From: a virus
Strand: one strand, 5' to 3'
Length of the DNA stretch: 64,000 nucleotides
IMG/VR virus record: IMGVR_UViG_3300045988_177924
Shown here: in pieces, positions 28,344 to 41,820 of the stretch
How positions within the stretch are numbered: position 1 is the first letter of the stretch
Layout: each line of letters opens with the position of its first letter
Program-made: the position numbers and the translations under genes
Notes under the pieces: generated by a model
Told to the model about the DNA's origin: nothing
Database searches by the model: none
What the model saw: the letters and a program-made list of their open reading frames with translations, nothing else

Positions 28344-28490
28344 AATGATTCTCCTTTCTATGCCATTAGTCTTCGATTAGCAAGATTTTTATTTTACGAA
28401 GATGATGCCATTATGAACACCATGAGCGCCACCCTCCTAAGAGGGCAACGGACTTGCACCGTTCACGCTTTCGCGCGGGCCTTGCGGTGA
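28344..28490 (-). ncRNA. conserved structured 5' leader, copy E1
   Basis: minus-strand blocks UAAUCACCGCAAGGCCCGC, ACGG-UGCAAGU-CCGU, GGCGCUCAUGGUG and GGCAUAGAAAGGAGAA are shared with E2; intervening hairpins differ in sequence but not in shape. Confidence 0.45.
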
Positions 28491-28982
28491 TTAACTCTCG
28501 TAAGATTCGAGAGCGTCCTCCAAATAATCAGTTCTTGCTCTTTCGAGCAAGAGTGATTTGGTAAGGGCATTCTTTTTGCCCTTGGTTGCTTTGAGCTCAT
28601 CTTCGGTGAGCGATGCGACAACTGTCGCTTGCGGCGTGAGTAAGACACCTTTCTTATAATCAATATAAGTTTCGGTGTCGATTTCGCTCTCGGCAGAGGT
28701 TACAATCTCATCAACGTTGTAGCCTTTAGTTAGAAGCATGAAACAAGAGGTCATCATGCTTTTTGCCTTATCGCTGTCGCCGGCGCAAACATCGATGCAA
28801 ATCTGCGCGAAGTGCACAGCAGCTTGCTTGTCGGCCTCGCCGTTGTAGCAGAATTTTTCTTTGCTGCCATCGGGAAACTCGATTGTTTCGATGCCGAGGT
28901 TGATATTCCCATCTGCTTTCATTGCGTCGAGGGCGTTGATGATGTTGGGGGTTGATACAGTTTGATTGATTTTAATTGACAT
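28491..28982 (-). CDS. hypothetical protein (163 aa)
   Basis: SD TAGGAGGA. Confidence 0.6.
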   Translation of the reverse strand: MSIKINQTVSTPNIINALDAMKADGNINLGIETIEFPDGSKEKFCYNGEADKQAAVHFAQICIDVCAGDSDKAKSMMTSCFMLLTKGYNVDEIVTSAESEIDTETYIDYKKGVLLTPQATVVASLTEDELKATKGKKNALTKSLLLERARTDYLEDALESYES

Positions 28983-30560: not shown

Positions 30561-30706
30561 AACGGTTTCTCCTTTCCCTGCCATGGGACCCCTAGCAATA
30601 ATAAAGTTTTTCGGGGACGGTGTCGTTATGCCCACCATAAGCGCCGCGTATTTCTACGCATCGGACTTGCACCGATCACCTCCGAGGGGGCGGGCCTTGC
30701 GGTGAT
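30561..30706 (-). ncRNA. conserved structured 5' leader, copy E2
   Basis: see E1; AUCGG-UGCAAGU-CCGAU hairpin co-varies with E1 AACGG/CCGUU. Confidence 0.45.
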
Positions 30707-30949
30707 TTATTTTAGTATTTCGCCGAAATTGTCGGTGACAAGTTGTTTGGCGACATCCGTCAAGTGGTGGATACACTTGCTGTAAGTCTCCGTTTTGCCT
30801 TCGACTTTAGCCCTGTATTCGGGCGTTATGGCGAAGGAAATTTTGGTGGCATTGGACATTTCTTTATCGAGTTGGGTGTTTACCCATATGACAAAATCGT
30901 TGACAAAGCCAACGATTGCCGCGATTTGGTCGGCGGTATAATTTTTCAT
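30707..30949 (-). CDS. hypothetical protein (80 aa)
   Basis: SD AAAGGAGG before ATG 30949. Confidence 0.55.
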   Translation of the reverse strand: MKNYTADQIAAIVGFVNDFVIWVNTQLDKEMSNATKISFAITPEYRAKVEGKTETYSKCIHHLTDVAKQLVTDNFGEILK

Positions 30950-34573: not shown

Positions 34574-35836
34574 TTAATCTTGACTGTTAATGATATTTTG
34601 ACTTATATATAAGCAACTTCTTCTCGCTGAGATTCTGTTACAGTTTGATAATTTTGGTGTCTTATAGCCTCTCGGCATATAACTAAAATCTATCTGATTA
34701 TTAAATATGTCCATAAGTATAGCAAATCCAGAACTCATCTTTCCTTTGATGAAATACTCTTTTCCAAAGTATTTGACCTTATCAAATTTTCTAAATCCTT
34801 GAATCTTACCTACAGGGATTTTTTGTTCTCCACGAACGCCCCTAGTTAATTGATAATTTCCTTTGGATACTCTTCGCTTTTGATAGATAGTGTCATTGAG
34901 CGTGAACTCTTTACCACCGGAAGAGATGACACAAGCATCTATGAAATGGTCTTTTGGTAGATGGAGACTTTCACGATTCGTCTTAGTAACAAATCCAAAA
35001 GTCTCAATAGCGTCAGGATAGACCTTAAGCAACCGACTTCTGATGATACTCATGTGAGTTGCATACTTTAAATTCATCTTTTTAGGTTTTTTGTTTAGTG
35101 CAATTTTCCCACTATGGACTCCGGTGTGGCAATCTTCACATAAGGTTATGAGATTGCTCTCATCATCTGTTCCACTTTGACTTTTAAAGACGATGTGATG
35201 AACCTCTAATCTGGTATGTTTCTTACCGCAAATCTGGCAGGTATAACCATCACGATTAAGTATGGCTTCTCGTCTACTGGCCCATTCATAGTTAAAACCC
35301 TTTTGATACCCCCAGTGTTTGACCTTCTCCAAAATCAAACTTGGATTTTTCATCAGATGTGTATCAAACTGACTGACTTCAAGTACAATCTTTGAAATTG
35401 GGAGTATCTTTTTGCAGAACTCGATTTCATCAATGTGTGCTTGTACCTTGTGCTTGACGGAAGGTGGAAGCCTGTTTAATTTGGTAGAGTTATTACGGTT
35501 GAGGAATCTTGACTCACGATAACGAGTCTTTCTGTTGCGTCTATTCCTACGAGCCTGTCTCCTACTATCCATCTTCGACTTGATATCGTCTCGAAGTTTT
35601 ACATTTGACTGATACAAAACTTTGTTATTGCCAACACAAGCAGTACCAATATATTTTGAGCCTGTATCTTGTCCTAAGACAACGTCTTGTGTATACTCAG
35701 TGGAGTCATAAGTAAGTTGAATTGTAAATGGACATCTCTTTTTGACTTTAGCTTTGCCATCTTTGAGAAGCAATCTTGCGACCACATTCTCGCATGGCAT
35801 TAGCGGTTTCCCACTTTTTGAAATTACATAAACCAT
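34574..35836 (-). CDS. iscB: IscB, OMEGA-family RNA-guided nuclease (RuvC split by HNH) (420 aa)
   Basis: PLMP (SGKPLMPC); RuvC-I VLGQDTGSKYIG; Arg-rich bridge helix RRQARRNRRNRKTRYR; RuvC-II IVLEVSQFD; HNH CQICG..LEVHHIVFKSQSGTDDESNLITLCEDCH; RuvC-III KDHFIDACVI; SD AAGGAGA. Confidence 0.85.
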   Translation of the reverse strand: MVYVISKSGKPLMPCENVVARLLLKDGKAKVKKRCPFTIQLTYDSTEYTQDVVLGQDTGSKYIGTACVGNNKVLYQSNVKLRDDIKSKMDSRRQARRNRRNRKTRYRESRFLNRNNSTKLNRLPPSVKHKVQAHIDEIEFCKKILPISKIVLEVSQFDTHLMKNPSLILEKVKHWGYQKGFNYEWASRREAILNRDGYTCQICGKKHTRLEVHHIVFKSQSGTDDESNLITLCEDCHTGVHSGKIALNKKPKKMNLKYATHMSIIRSRLLKVYPDAIETFGFVTKTNRESLHLPKDHFIDACVISSGGKEFTLNDTIYQKRRVSKGNYQLTRGVRGEQKIPVGKIQGFRKFDKVKYFGKEYFIKGKMSSGFAILMDIFNNQIDFSYMPRGYKTPKLSNCNRISARRSCLYISQNIINSQD

Positions 35837-36161
35837 AAATAAGTCTCCTTAAAATTCTCACTCTTAATGAGTGGTAACGCCTATCTTAACTCTGTTACCA
35901 AGTTAAGAATTGGTCTTCCTTTCGTCAATGTTAATTAGGCTTTTGCGACATACACACAGGGCTTTTCTTACTCCAACCCAACTTAATGTATATCGACAGA
36001 GCGACGGTCTAAGGCGACAACCGAAGGTGTCATGACCTAACTAACGTAGCTCTCATTTCTGAGGCTGAGACTTGTGAACTATTTAATGGAAGCCTACGAG
36101 TTTTTAGCTCATAGGTGGCTCACTAGGATTATTACATCACTTTACTCCTTTATATCTTATA
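35837..36161 (-). ncRNA. candidate omega RNA (HEARO-type) of IscB, including the 5' guide region
   Basis: 325 nt ORF-free stretch between a consensus promoter and the iscB ATG; helices CCUAUGAG/CUCGUAGG, CUCA-GAAA-UGAG, CUUAAC/GUUAAG interleaved with GGUAAC/GUUACC, CACUC/GAGUG. Confidence 0.6.
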
Positions 36162-37906: not shown

Positions 37907-39548
37907 GTGCCTAATTTACAAAACCTATATCAAGTTTTTAAACTTAAATCTAGTTTTATTGTAGAGAACAACTTAAATATAGTTAATTATTCAAAATCTA
38001 AGGCAGCTCGCGATGGAGCGCTGGTATCAATTGGTGATAATCTGGTTTTTCAACAAATCAGAAAATATTATAATGATACCAGAAGTCATCGAGAGATTTT
38101 TAACGATGTCCAACAATTTCGTCGCGCTATAAGAGCCGCGAAGAGAGAGGGACGAACTAAGGAAGCTGGTATTCTTAATCGGTTTTTGACAGATGCGTTG
38201 TTTGTTAAAGATATTATTAACGTTGAAGTCGTGACCAAGAAAGAATATAAAGAATTGGCCAAGAATGGTTTTGACGTTAACGGTATTCATTATGTGAGAT
38301 TTTGTTGTGGTTCGGGACAAATGAGGCGCAACACTATTACCTTTATTAACGAAGCTCTTTATGACACCTTGTACAAAAACCTGATGTGCGGGTTGGACAC
38401 CAAGATTTCAGAAATGAATTTGGCGAAATATCATGCGTATTTTGCGTTGGCGTTTTCAAGTGTTATGTGGGTGCGAACTCCGAGGGTATGCGTAGTTAAG
38501 GATTTCTTTAATGTGGTGAAGGATCAATCGGTTGATTGGATTTGCCCCAATCCCGAGACTGGGAAAAAACAGATTAAAGAAAGAATAATGGATATCGAGT
38601 TAAACTGCGCTGATGGACAGGGGTTGATAGATCCTAAGTTTGCGGCGCTGTGGGCAGAAGATATGAATTTATCATATACGCCGTCGTCGTTCGTTGTCCG
38701 TAGCGTTTTTGTGAAGGGGTGCTTGGTTCCATTTGATTTTCGAGAATTTGGAGCTGTACACGGTATTGACTCAATTCGTGACCGGTGGGGAATCTCGCAT
38801 AGGTTAGAGGATATTGATGTTATATTGAGTGAATCTCAATTCAAGATGTATAAATATTATGTATCTTGGTATGAATATCAAAAGTATGTAGATGCGGCTG
38901 GTATTCAGTGGGGAGTTGCGAGATATAATAAAAAGTACGATGACGAATATGTGCTGGCTAATTATCAATATCTGCAAGTGTTGGATATCAATAAGGATGA
39001 TATTCTGGAATTGATTCAACCGACGATTGATTGGATTAAAAAGATTTGTTCAGGTGACCAATTGTATACAATGCTGTATATGTTGGGTTGCAAGGGCGAA
39101 CAGGTCAGTTTTAAAGAGCTGTACAATGGAGCGCAAAGCACGGCGTTGAGGGCTATTATTAAAAACCCGATAATGTTGGAAGACGCTCATGTACAGAAGA
39201 AAATATATCGCAATATTGCTGAGACGATAAACAAGGCGAAGATTGGTAAGATATGGGTGAGAGGAAATTATAGTTTTATGATTTCCGATCCCGTGGCACA
39301 GTGCCAATCGGCGCTTGGGTTGGAACCGGTGGGGTTAATTGGGCCTGACCAAGTGTATTCAAATTTCTGGAGGCAGCGAAGTGTGGGTTGTGTTGACCTG
39401 TGCCGCAGCCCGATGATTGACTCGCACGAACACAACCCTTGTAAAGTAGTATCGTCCGAAGATATGGATTATTGGTATCAATATATTAAGAGTGGAATCA
39501 TTTATAGTATATATGATACTTCAACATTACGACACTCCGATAGTGACT
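37907..39548 (+). CDS. YonO/RdRP-like single-subunit RNA polymerase, exon 1 (spliced product about 957 aa)
   Basis: GTG start with SD AGAGGAAG; ADGQGLID (RdRP-family DGxGxI), CRSPMIDSHEHNPCKVV; ends ..HSDSD then one nt of the next codon. Confidence 0.55.
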
Positions 39549-40588
39549 TAACATAATGGGTCCGTCGGATGGTAACATTCGATTGCTACTCAGTGAACCT
39601 GGCAATCCAGGGTGTGGGATAAAATCCTGCTAACAGTAAAAATCGTAAGTTTTGTTGGTCGGCCTGGAGAGAAATGCCGACAGAAGAAAAAGAATTCTAT
39701 GTCTATGAATGGATAAACAAAGACACGGGAGAGATTTTCTACGTAGGGAAAGGTAGTGGTTATCGTTGGAAACGTAAAACCGCCAGCTCTCGAAACAGAT
39801 ATTTCAATCGTTATGTCCAAAAATATCCAAATTGTGAACCTCGAAAAGTTTATGAAAATTTAACTGAAGAAGAGGCTTACAACAAAGAGCGAGAATTAAT
39901 AGCCGAATATAAAGCACAAGGCGTTCAGCTGGTTAACTTCGACGAAGGAGGACGACGAGGTGGACGCTCACCTGGAAAGCTAAATGGTATGTATGGGAAA
40001 ACACATACACCAGAAGCTCGAAAGAAAATAAGCGAAGCCAATTCCGATGGCCACAATGCGGGAATCAACAATACTCAATATGGAATTAGTCCAAGAGAGC
40101 GTATGAGTCCTGCGATATACGAGCAGTGGCGTACGGCACACAAGAAAGTAGTTGGTGCAGCAAATCCAAATTGCCATCATACAATTTTGTTTAATCTTGA
40201 ACATGAGATTGTGAAAGAGTTTGAATATACGATTGAATGTGCGCATTTTTTGGAAGAGCAAGAGCATTTAACTAATGGAATTGAGAATATTCGCTCGCAA
40301 ATCAAATATTACAGCAATACAGGACACGTTATGTTCAATAAGTATTATGTAAAAGTGATTCGGCCAACAAAACAAGACAATACTGTGCCAAGCCTCGTGA
40401 AAGAGGAAGGTTAAACGACTACCGAAAGCATATCAAGCGAGAAAAACGTTTGAAAAGAAGCAAGTAGGGTAGAGAACGGTGCAAATCCGGTTCTCGAAGT
40501 GCTGAGGGAACTATGAACGGTAAAAGAACATAGCTCTAAGAGATAGTCTACTCCCCTAATAAATATCGGGAAACCGAGGGTATAAAGG
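39549..40588 (+). mobile_element. group I intron (1040 nt) carrying a GIY-YIG homing endonuclease ORF
   Basis: P1 exon GACU paired with intron GGUC, with U.G at the splice site; core AACUAU/AUAGU(C)U (P7) inside R/S-like elements GGGAACUAUGAACGG and AAGAGAUAGUCUAC; terminal G at 40588; splicing restores the frame. Confidence 0.75.
39674..40414 (+). CDS. GIY-YIG homing endonuclease with NUMOD3-like repeats (246 aa)
   Basis: FYVYEWINKDTGEIFYVGKGSGYR ... NKERELI (GIY-YIG module); GMYGKTHTPEARKKISEA (NUMOD3-like). Confidence 0.8.
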   Translation: MPTEEKEFYVYEWINKDTGEIFYVGKGSGYRWKRKTASSRNRYFNRYVQKYPNCEPRKVYENLTEEEAYNKERELIAEYKAQGVQLVNFDEGGRRGGRSPGKLNGMYGKTHTPEARKKISEANSDGHNAGINNTQYGISPRERMSPAIYEQWRTAHKKVVGAANPNCHHTILFNLEHEIVKEFEYTIECAHFLEEQEHLTNGIENIRSQIKYYSNTGHVMFNKYYVKVIRPTKQDNTVPSLVKEEG

Positions 40589-41820
40589 TTGACGGAGATG
40601 TAGTAATGTCCACGGATAATAAAATCTTTATCAAGGGTGCGCAAAAATGGCACAATGTCATCACATATGAGAAAGGTGCGGTGCCGGTTCAGAAGATTTG
40701 TTTAAAGAATTCAATCGCGACCGATATTCGCGGCTTGGGAACTGGGGTTGGAGGTTTTTCTAACTGCGCAACAATAATGCACGCAATGAAGGGAATTTTC
40801 CAAAAAGACACCCAAAAAGAACAAAGAGACGAACTCACTTTGCGTATTAAATTACTTCGAGAAATTGTTGGTCAAGAAATTGATAGAATTAAAGGAACAG
40901 CCGCGCCGGAGCTGCCAAAAGAGTGGAAAAAATTCATCCGAATTAATGATGATGACACTGATGCGGTTAAGGCTGATAAATATAAAAGAAATTCGATGGT
41001 TATTTCTAAAAAACCCTATTTCTTTAGATATTTATATCCAGAGCTAAACCAACAGTTCAAGCAATACGAAAACAGTTACAATATGGCGTCCAAAAACATG
41101 TTTGGTATTAAATTTAAAAAGCTTTTAACCAAACCTAATAAGTCAGAAGACGAGATGAATTTGGTACGCCGTTATCAAAAGTATTCGCCGCTAATCACCG
41201 CACCGTGCATAATGAATATATTGTGTAAGGAATTTGAAAATGTCGATTTTGATATTAATTTCAATAAAAACGCGGTAAGTATGTTGCCTACCTTTGAGGA
41301 TTGTTTTGAATTTGATCAAGAACGGTTTGCTATTGTTAAAGATTTGTATCGCAAATATACAGCGCGTAAACAAGTAAAAACCTTGGAGAGTATTGTTGAT
41401 AATATTGATTTACCGAATCGTGACGAATATGATGAGATTAGATTCGGGGCAATGACATTTATCAGAACGGAAATTCAAGAGGCGATTGAGTCTGCGTCGT
41501 TCAGTGGCAAAGAATTGCTTTACTACTGCCATTGTTTATCAAAAGAATACAAACAGTTTAATTGGGATTTTGCTTGGGACATTTTAGACGAAAGCGTGTT
41601 GGATTTAATCCCTCGTGGAATTGTTCAGATTCCCGTAAAAAATGAGACTGGATTTGAATACCTTGGTAATCGATACACTTTACAAGTAATTCACGAAGAT
41701 CGCGTCAGCGAGTTGTGTGATGATGACGATTGGAATCAAACGGCGTGGGAAGAAATTTTGGGGCAAGATTTAGATTTTGACTTCGATGCTGATAACTTAT
41801 TTGGAGGCGATGACGTATGA
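40589..41820 (+). CDS. YonO/RdRP-like RNA polymerase, exon 2
   Basis: reading frame open from 40589 (tt gac gga gat ..); junction gives SDFDGDVVMSTDNK. Confidence 0.55.

Follow-up and report, generated by a model that had tools for sequence, protein, structure and literature searches.

The insertion at positions 39549–40588 of a 64,000-nt virus sequence (IMG/VR record IMGVR_UViG_3300045988_177924; this whole stretch is called the window below) is very probably a mobile, IA-like phage group I intron, which interrupts the YonO-like RNA polymerase gene of a gut phage and carries a predicted endonuclease of the GIY-YIG/NUMOD3 type. Its splicing would give a polymerase of 957 amino acids, and its endonuclease would promote homing into intron-less alleles of the same gene. 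Self-splicing, and the activity and target of the endonuclease, are predicted here from the sequence. That group I introns with endonucleases occupy conserved codons of phage genes is well established. The element is a good new example of such mobile elements and does not represent a kind of its own.

The interrupted gene lies on the plus strand, as do all the features of the intron described below. The open reading frame (ORF) 37907–39556 terminates with ..HSDSDLT*, and the next ORF, 40606–41820, is preceded in frame, upstream of its ATG at 40606, by gtt gac gga gat gta gta. Excision of 39549–40588 joins GAC U (ending in U39548) to UU GAC GGA GAU (beginning with U40589), and the two exons (1642 + 1232 = 2874 nt) then form one frame of 957 codons plus stop. 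Exon 1 (37907–39548) contains codons 1–547 and the first base of a Phe codon, ending ..HSDSD + U, and exon 2 (40589–41820) continues with UU GAC GGA GAU.., that is (F)DGDVVMSTDNK.., through the stop. The insertion point is after the first base of this Phe codon, within the codons of the DFDGD motif. The spliced junction reads GATAGTGACT|TTGACGGAGATG at the nucleotide level and ..HSDSDFDGDVVMSTDNK.. in the protein (also given as ..RHSDSDFDGDVVMSTDNK.. and ..IYDTSTLRHSDSDFDGDVVMSTDNK..). The ORF ends, the in-frame codons before the second ORF, the position within the DFDGD codons and the restored 957-codon frame had all been described in an initial annotation of the window, and all of them were recovered here.

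The predicted junction is the one that is read in alleles without the insertion, both in protein and in DNA. The intron-less protein P0001 (960 aa), which is 99% identical, is uninterrupted and reads ..LRHSDSDFDGDVVMSTDNK.., and D[FYWH]DGD is found at this position in 120 of the 120 full-length homologues listed from a search of 5.8 billion proteins. At the DNA level, the IMG/VR loci L015 and L016 read ..CGA CAT TCT GAC AGT GAT TTT GAC GGC GAC GTA GTA ATG.. with no insert (the empty-site sequence of L015 is ...CGACATTCTGACAGTGATTTTGACGGCGACGTAG...), and the inserted block is therefore 39549–40588. The DNA comparison alone would also allow a junction one nucleotide further 3' (T39549/T40589), and the boundaries given here were chosen because only with these does the 5' exon end in U and the intron in G. 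The agreement of the predicted junction with the intron-less alleles is far beyond chance.

By homology, the interrupted gene is that of a two-barrel, YonO-type single-subunit phage RNA polymerase, in line with the initial annotation, which took it for a two-barrel phage RNA polymerase. The spliced product is matched by the Pfam family RdRP (PF05183; 43.7 bits, cut-off 23.8) and by phrog_8308 of PHROGs (3.5e-101), and a tblastn search aligned its residues 65–609 with yonO of SPBc2/SPbeta at 28% identity (E 2e-32). Further homologues in the tblastn search were found in Clostridium phage c-st, Enterocloster phages and gut phage contigs. A phmmer search of the spliced polymerase against the PDB sequences gave noise only. 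In an alignment of five proteins, the DFDGD of the window is aligned with DNDGD of YonO, and the catalytic aspartate triad DxDGD of the polymerase exists only in the product of the proposed splice. YonO itself, a DNA-dependent RNA polymerase of a single chain, loses its activity when the Asp triad is replaced by Asn (PMC5467207). The Gly of the metal-binding motif is replaced in some homologues, which read DFDYD in L003 (Bacillus phage BUCT082) and DFDSD in L128, with all three Asp retained.

The intron is 1040 nt long, starts with UAAC.. and ends with ..AAAGG, the last base being G40588. P1 (39545–39562) pairs the exon sequence GACU (39545–48) with the guide GGUC (39559–62), 10 nt into the intron, and puts the wobble pair U39548·G39559 at the splice site. 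It is followed by the P2 hairpin (39565–39582), UCGGAUG-GUAA-CAUUCGA, which has a GNRA loop; the P2 of the sister intron, UCGGUUG-GUGA-CAAUCGA, differs from it by one compensatory change. P3 is formed by CUCAGUG (39589–95) and UGCUGAG (40500–06), and in four of its seven pairs both partners vary within a set of 13 introns. Between P3 and P4 two hairpins specific to this intron family are found (39598–39628), CCUGG-CAAU-CCAGG (39598–611) and GGGAU-AAA-AUCCU (39616–28), with a conserved GGUGU between them. P4 consists of ACAGU (39633–37) and ACUGU (40382–86), its 5' strand being preceded by UAA in J3/4 and followed by an A-rich J4/5, and P6/P6a (40387–40411) is GCC..CCUC-GUGAAA-GAGG..GGU. The R element GGUUAAACGACUAC (40409–40422) overlaps the stop codon of the ORF and contains the 5' strand of P7, which pairs GACUA (40417–21) with UAGUC (40544–48); in relatives the same helix is GAUUA/UAAUC and GACCA/UGGUC. 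Downstream of it there are P7.1 (40433–53; UCAAGCG/CGUUUGA), a conserved AGUAGGGU (40463–70) and P7.2 (40472–95; GAGAACGG/CCGGUUCUC), P7.1 and P7.2 being peripheral elements of the IA type. The P8 hairpin (CUAUG 40511–15/CAUAG 40529–33) and P9 (40553–81; CCCC/GGGU enclosing a GAAA-capped UCGG-GAAA-CCGA) were assigned by eye. J8/7, CUCUAAGAGA, together with the 3' strand of P7, UAGUC, makes up the S element (40534–40548), and a 3' tail AUAAAGG leads to G40588. A longer P5, GUUUUGUUGG (39649–58) with CCAACAAAAC (40364–73), is proposed from its position and would enclose the ORF.

Two candidate pairings were rejected. An alternative P3, AUCCUGCU/AGUAGGGU, is not conserved in L001, and CUCAGUG/UGCUGAG covaries in 17 of 17 sequences by eye (13 in the formal count). 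The P7 of the initial annotation, AACUAU/AUAGU with an 'R-like' GGGAACUAUGAACGG, is not conserved either, and its 5' arm is the 5' arm of P8. That assignment of P7 and R is replaced by GACUA/UAGUC and GGUUAAACGACUAC.

The core helices are supported by covariation. In a MAFFT alignment of 13 family introns from different genes, 25 pairs in P3, the first P3–P4 hairpin, P4, P6 and P7 were examined; 96.6% of the cells are paired, and 13 of the pairs show changes on both sides. The number of double-change cells is 64, compared with 18.7 ± 3.2 in shuffled alignments, and none of 500 shuffles reached the observed score. When the partners were shifted by one to three columns, the pairing fell to 27–42% and the double changes to 0–8. 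Moreover, the P1 guide tracks the exon in relatives, which have GCGGAU/GUCCGC (L128), CUUCGAU/GUCGAAG (L204), UUCGAU/GUCGAA (L089), and also CUAUGAU/GUCAUAG. The pairing GACU/GGUC with its U·G at the splice site, and the terminal G, set at G40588 by the empty-site DNA of L015 and L016, thus stand as they had been proposed earlier. The class of the element stands as well, since the core is supported by covariation and by near-identity to known phage introns. The insert is a group I intron by these sequence comparisons, of a subgroup that is IA-like (P7.1/P7.2) by resemblance only.

Several observations weigh against this assignment. The Rfam group I model RF00028 gave 12.5 bits (E 3.4) on the intron of the window, below its gathering score of 50, so that the covariance model check proposed with the initial annotation failed; on the ORF-less sister intron the same model gave no match at all. 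P1 is only 4 bp long, P10 is weak in the window copy (only a U·G next to the guide), and a 10-bp complement such as the extended P5 is estimated to occur by chance about once per 1 kb and is not significant alone. Finally, a search of the viral and Joint Genome Institute (JGI) metagenome contig collections for the spliced junction with intron-type flanks gave no match; the collections are DNA assemblies and weak evidence either way, and the absence fits the lack of a precise-loss allele and says nothing about RNA. In an Rfam scan of the whole window no group I match was found at threshold. The Rfam alignment locates the Q-P6-R and S elements in the window intron. The Rfam and GISSD models have been reported to miss phage introns (PMC11878797), which agrees with the result of RF00028 here.

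The missing Rfam match, the short P1 and the weak P10 might also be expected of a decayed intron, in which splicing has been lost and the polymerase has become a pseudogene in this phage lineage. This is very improbable. All core helices are intact, both exons are open and 99% identical in protein to the intron-less alleles, and the allele is common on contigs of 100–140 kb from many samples.

Another explanation is that a free-standing endonuclease gene has been inserted, and that the two halves of the polymerase are made separately and assemble with no RNA splicing. The mobE insertion in nrdA of phage Aeh1 is reportedly such a case of genes in pieces. Gene callers do annotate products of 549 and 404 aa separately, and the ATG at 40606 has purines upstream of it. 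Against this, DSD would be left on one piece and DGD would be lost, because exon 2 has its ATG beyond the motif, and YonO cannot do without its Asp triad (PMC5467207). Nor would there be any role for the approximately 300 nt of non-coding flank, which are conserved with other introns and form covarying helices, and the loci L019–L023 hold a 314-nt insert without an ORF at the same site. Assembly from separate pieces is therefore regarded as extremely unlikely, and removal of the insert as an intron is preferred.

The ribozyme belongs to a large family of phage introns. Positions 40538–40590 (53 nt, two exon bases included) match the terminase intron of Enterococcus phage EH93P1 at 100% identity, and about 50 nt of the 3' end of the intron are 94% identical to introns of Twort-like Staphylococcus phages (Romulus and relatives). 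In total, 210 records match the 3' end, Listeria and Bacillus phages among them; from 40538 onwards, the identity to introns of Enterococcus, Staphylococcus, Listeria and Bacillus phages is 94–100%. The string ATATCGGGAAACCGAGGGT was found in at least 120 IMG/VR stretches. A blastn search with the 5' 132 nt of the intron against phage records gave no match, so the 5' half is joined to the family only by its structural pattern. This 5' core, GUGAAC-hairpin-GGUGU-hairpin-GCUAAC-P4, is present in about 70 retrieved copies (75 rows, including a few loose matches and some of the window's own alleles), more than 60 of them being introns other than that of the window, and the pattern GTGAAC..GGTGT..CTAAC occurs only once in the window. 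The intron carried by the gene for DNA polymerase in Bacillus phages Grass and SBSphiJ4 belongs to the same family. RF00028 misses the family even in its ORF-less form, and a large and well-conserved family of phage introns thus escapes the Rfam group I model. The region between P3 and P4 (39596–39632), with its two conserved hairpins and an invariant GGUGU, is unusual, since most group I introns have a 3-nt junction there; a comparison of the two hairpins with named elements found no match.

The ORF within the intron (39674–40414) encodes 246 amino acids, with an N-terminal GIY-YIG domain, a NUMOD3 motif and a C-terminal domain, and on motif, profile and fold evidence its product is a divergent GIY-YIG + NUMOD3 endonuclease as predicted. 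NUMOD3 (PF07460) is matched at residues 101–120 with 22.5 bits against a Pfam cut-off of 20.4, and the PHROGs profile phrog_314, 'homing endonuclease', matches the ORF at 4.5e-17. The motif YVYEW-x9-FYVGKG-x3-R ... E ... N is present, and its Y, Y, G, R, E and N are invariant in 14 homologues. A profile of the N-terminal domain matches a solved 'GIY-YIG domain-containing protein' in the PDB (9u75; 1.4e-5). The AlphaFold model has a mean predicted local distance difference test score (pLDDT) of 79.7, with about 90 in the N-terminal domain, and its best Foldseek matches are the GIY-YIG enzyme PD-T4-3 (probability 1.00) and the GIY-YIG N-domain of UvrC (0.97–0.99). Other comparisons were weak or negative and count against the assignment: Pfam GIY-YIG (PF01541) has no match to the ORF, and TIGR01453 gave 16.1 bits, below its cut-off of 56.05. 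A phmmer search of the endonuclease against the PDB sequences gave noise only, and hhalign of the N-terminal domain with three canonical GIY-YIG domains gave a probability of 8%. The initial annotation had called the ORF a clear GIY-YIG/NUMOD3 protein; NUMOD3, the catalytic motif, the profile matches and the fold bear out the family, but the word 'clear' was too strong, as the cut-offs of PF01541 and TIGR01453 are not reached.

The ORF and the ribozyme overlap. The C-terminus of the protein, ..DNTVPSLVKEEG*, is encoded by AAU ACU GUG CCA AGC CUC .. GAG GAA GGU UAA, and the last ~17 codons double as J5/4-P4'-P6-J6/7 of the ribozyme. It is because of this double use that 'NTVPS' (NTVPSL..EEG, 40376–40414) recurs in most homologues. 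A variant of 259 aa without the TAA stop reads on through P7 and P7.1 (..EEGQTTTESISSEKNV). At the start of the ORF a hairpin GUCGGC/GCCGAC (39658–39681) may be formed, with GGAGAG (39666–71) and the A and U of the AUG start codon (39674–75) in its loop, the G of that codon and the two codons after it being in the 3' arm. Such a hairpin might exert translational control by delaying the translation of the endonuclease.

Three allelic states of the site are found in natural populations: the empty site, a 314-nt ORF-less intron and the endonuclease-bearing intron. The last, as in the window, is present in L008–L013 on contigs of 100–140 kb from ENA metagenome assemblies, and the exact endonuclease sequence was found on 270 contigs. 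The ORF-less intron of L019–L023 is at the identical position and is 75–85% identical to the ribozyme parts of the window intron. Within the 90% protein cluster, the 960-aa (intron-less) and the 549/404-aa (split) forms are both common.

Comparison of 240 nt on each side of the insertion site revealed a short tract that is linked to the intron. Every intron-bearing allele, including L023, whose backbone is only 88% identical, reads CAC TCC GAT AGT GAC T | TT GAC GGA GAT, and every intron-less allele, of both the 99% and the 83% relatives, reads CAT TCT GAC AGY GAT T | TT GAC GGC GAC. The synonymous differences at -14, -11, -8, -2 and +8 thus separate alleles with the intron from alleles without it in every case, and only that at -2 is within P1. 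The differences outside P1 are best explained either as markers that entered by co-conversion along with the intron or as changes by which the intron-bearing allele would escape cleavage by its own endonuclease. Together with the empty-site alleles, these linked flanks argue for homing, and the proposal that the element is mobile, made in the initial annotation, is strengthened by them. One site in a gut-phage population appears to hold all three stages of a homing cycle and would provide a natural system for the study of intron spread and of interference between phages.

The same alleles might be read as a record of old events and ordinary recombination, in an intron that splices and is inherited only vertically, its endonuclease being inactive or not directed to this site. 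The divergence of the ORF, which stays below the curated thresholds of Pfam GIY-YIG and TIGR01453, would fit this explanation, as would the ORF-less introns that persist at the same site, since they indicate that retention of the ribozyme does not require the ORF. It is considered unlikely, because the ORF is intact, with its exact sequence on 270 contigs and a 90% cluster of 145 members, because the GIY-YIG catalytic positions are all invariant among the homologues, and because a backbone with intron-less nearest relatives has the intron bordered by this same short tract.

Under the favored reading of a spliced and mobile intron, the primary transcript would fold into P1–P9, with P1 presenting U39548·G39559. 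A guanosine cofactor would attack after U39548, and the freed exon would then attack after G40588, so that GAC U is joined to UU GAC GGA GAU in the mRNA of the 957-aa polymerase. The unspliced frames yield a product ending in DSDLT* and a C-terminal piece without DGD, and therefore no active enzyme can form from them. The endonuclease, encoded in the loop of the P5 arm, presumably cuts intron-less polymerase alleles in a mixed infection, and repair from the intron-bearing genome would copy in the intron and, along with it, a few bases of the flanks.

Among known systems, the td intron of phage T4 is of group IA2, encodes the GIY-YIG endonuclease I-TevI and has its ORF in P6a. Like the window element, it is a group I intron of a phage, lies in the gene of a conserved enzyme and has the extra helices P7.1 and P7.2. 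I-TevI is also built of a GIY-YIG domain at the N-terminus, a linker containing a NUMOD3-type motif and a domain at the C-terminus, and the region of its start codon is also foldable into a hairpin. The td intron differs in its host gene and in the location of the ORF, which in the window is in the P5 arm and at its 3' end also serves as J5/4-P4'-P6-J6/7. The two extra P3–P4 hairpins, and a GIY-YIG domain too divergent for the Pfam and TIGRFAM cut-offs, also distinguish the window element from it.

A closer parallel in the kind of gene is found in phage PhiPA3, where a group I intron carrying the HNH endonuclease gp210 is inserted at the conserved aspartates of the virion RNA polymerase beta-subunit gene, and the target of gp210 is the intron-less homologue of a competing phage (PMC11620839). 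Both elements are group I introns with an endonuclease, and both interrupt a phage RNA polymerase gene at conserved aspartates. The host gene and enzyme in PhiPA3 are a multi-subunit beta subunit and an HNH nickase, whereas here they are a single-subunit, YonO-type DxDGD polymerase and a predicted GIY-YIG endonuclease.

The nearest ribozymes are the terminase intron of EH93P1 and the DNA polymerase/terminase introns of Herelleviridae (Bacillus phages Grass and SBSphiJ4; Staphylococcus phage Romulus). The intron of EH93P1 shares the ribozyme family, the 5' core and a GIY-YIG ORF whose end overlaps P4'-P6. Those of SBSphiJ4 and Grass share the family and the 5' core, and that of Romulus shares the family with about 94% identity in the 3' part, which is the part that the comparison covers. 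They differ in host genes and internal guide sequences, and the endonuclease of EH93P1 is canonical and I-TevI-like (TIGR01453, 106 bits), in contrast to the divergent family here.

In Clostridium phage c-st the YonO homologue (CST179 + CST178) is interrupted at the same motif, ..GMDMD | GD... The interruption is 317 nt long (L002 2660–2976; AP008983), follows a U, ends in G, and has a GGAU/GUCC P1 and R/S-like elements. Unlike the window intron, it contains no ORF, lies 5 nt further 3' (DxD^GD) and has another ribozyme sequence, and its record lists two proteins, CST179 as the N-terminal part and CST178 after it, and no intron. It looks like an unannotated ORF-less group I intron.

Introns of the family interrupt the DxDGD codons at three positions among YonO-like genes. 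Insertions at DxD^GD were found in gut phage MT835481, Clostridium phage c-st, L204 and L143, and insertions at D^xDGD in L089–92 and L128; the intron ORF of MT835481 matched no endonuclease family in NCBIfam. Ten of the 78 IMG/VR YonO-like loci lack an uninterrupted motif, and among these L019–23 and L089–92 are split at the motif itself. L078 is a candidate for such a split, in which the downstream exon and R/S-like elements are seen. About 45 nt into the excerpt of L153 (IMGVR_UViG_3300014087_000018), a family intron is found at another conserved site, ..ENNFTID | FAK.., which adjoins the only invariant Lys of alignment A1; the YonO-like identity of this locus rests on the motif alone.

By analogy with PhiPA3, it may tentatively be suggested that the Asp-triad codons of YonO-type polymerases are a recurrent battleground for mobile introns, which carry a GIY-YIG ORF here, an unassigned ORF in L001 and none in c-st and L019–23, and which enter at three points within about 6 nt. 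The copy with the endonuclease might then act as a weapon between co-infecting gut phages, cutting the polymerase gene of the rival as gp210 does, and late transcription might be tied to the folding of the ribozyme; this is a possibility that we hold with some doubt.

In a literature search, no paper was found that connects introns with YonO-type polymerases. The genes known to be invaded by mobile introns may be extended by the YonO-type polymerase, with the metal-binding loop as the specific site. Gene callers report each such gene as two 'hypothetical proteins', as is also the case in the record of c-st, and as a result polymerases of this type are missed or mis-sized in phage annotation.

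Other elements are present elsewhere in the window. On the minus strand, within 34574–36123, an IscB-type ORF of 420 aa (RRXRR and HNH were found in the identical gene of L009) lies directly downstream of a HEARO/omega RNA (35910–36123; 94.6 bits). Together they resemble a phage-borne element of the OMEGA type, and the polymerase gene begins about 1.8 kb downstream of it. This element is polymorphic: it is present in L009 and L011, and an N6_N4 methyltransferase gene is found instead in L008 and L010. In L020, a HEARO RNA (140 bits) immediately follows the polymerase gene. Two twister-sister ribozymes (28413–28492 and 30628–30707, minus strand), which scored 71 and 54.5 bits against a gathering score of 34, occupy short gaps between minus-strand ORFs.

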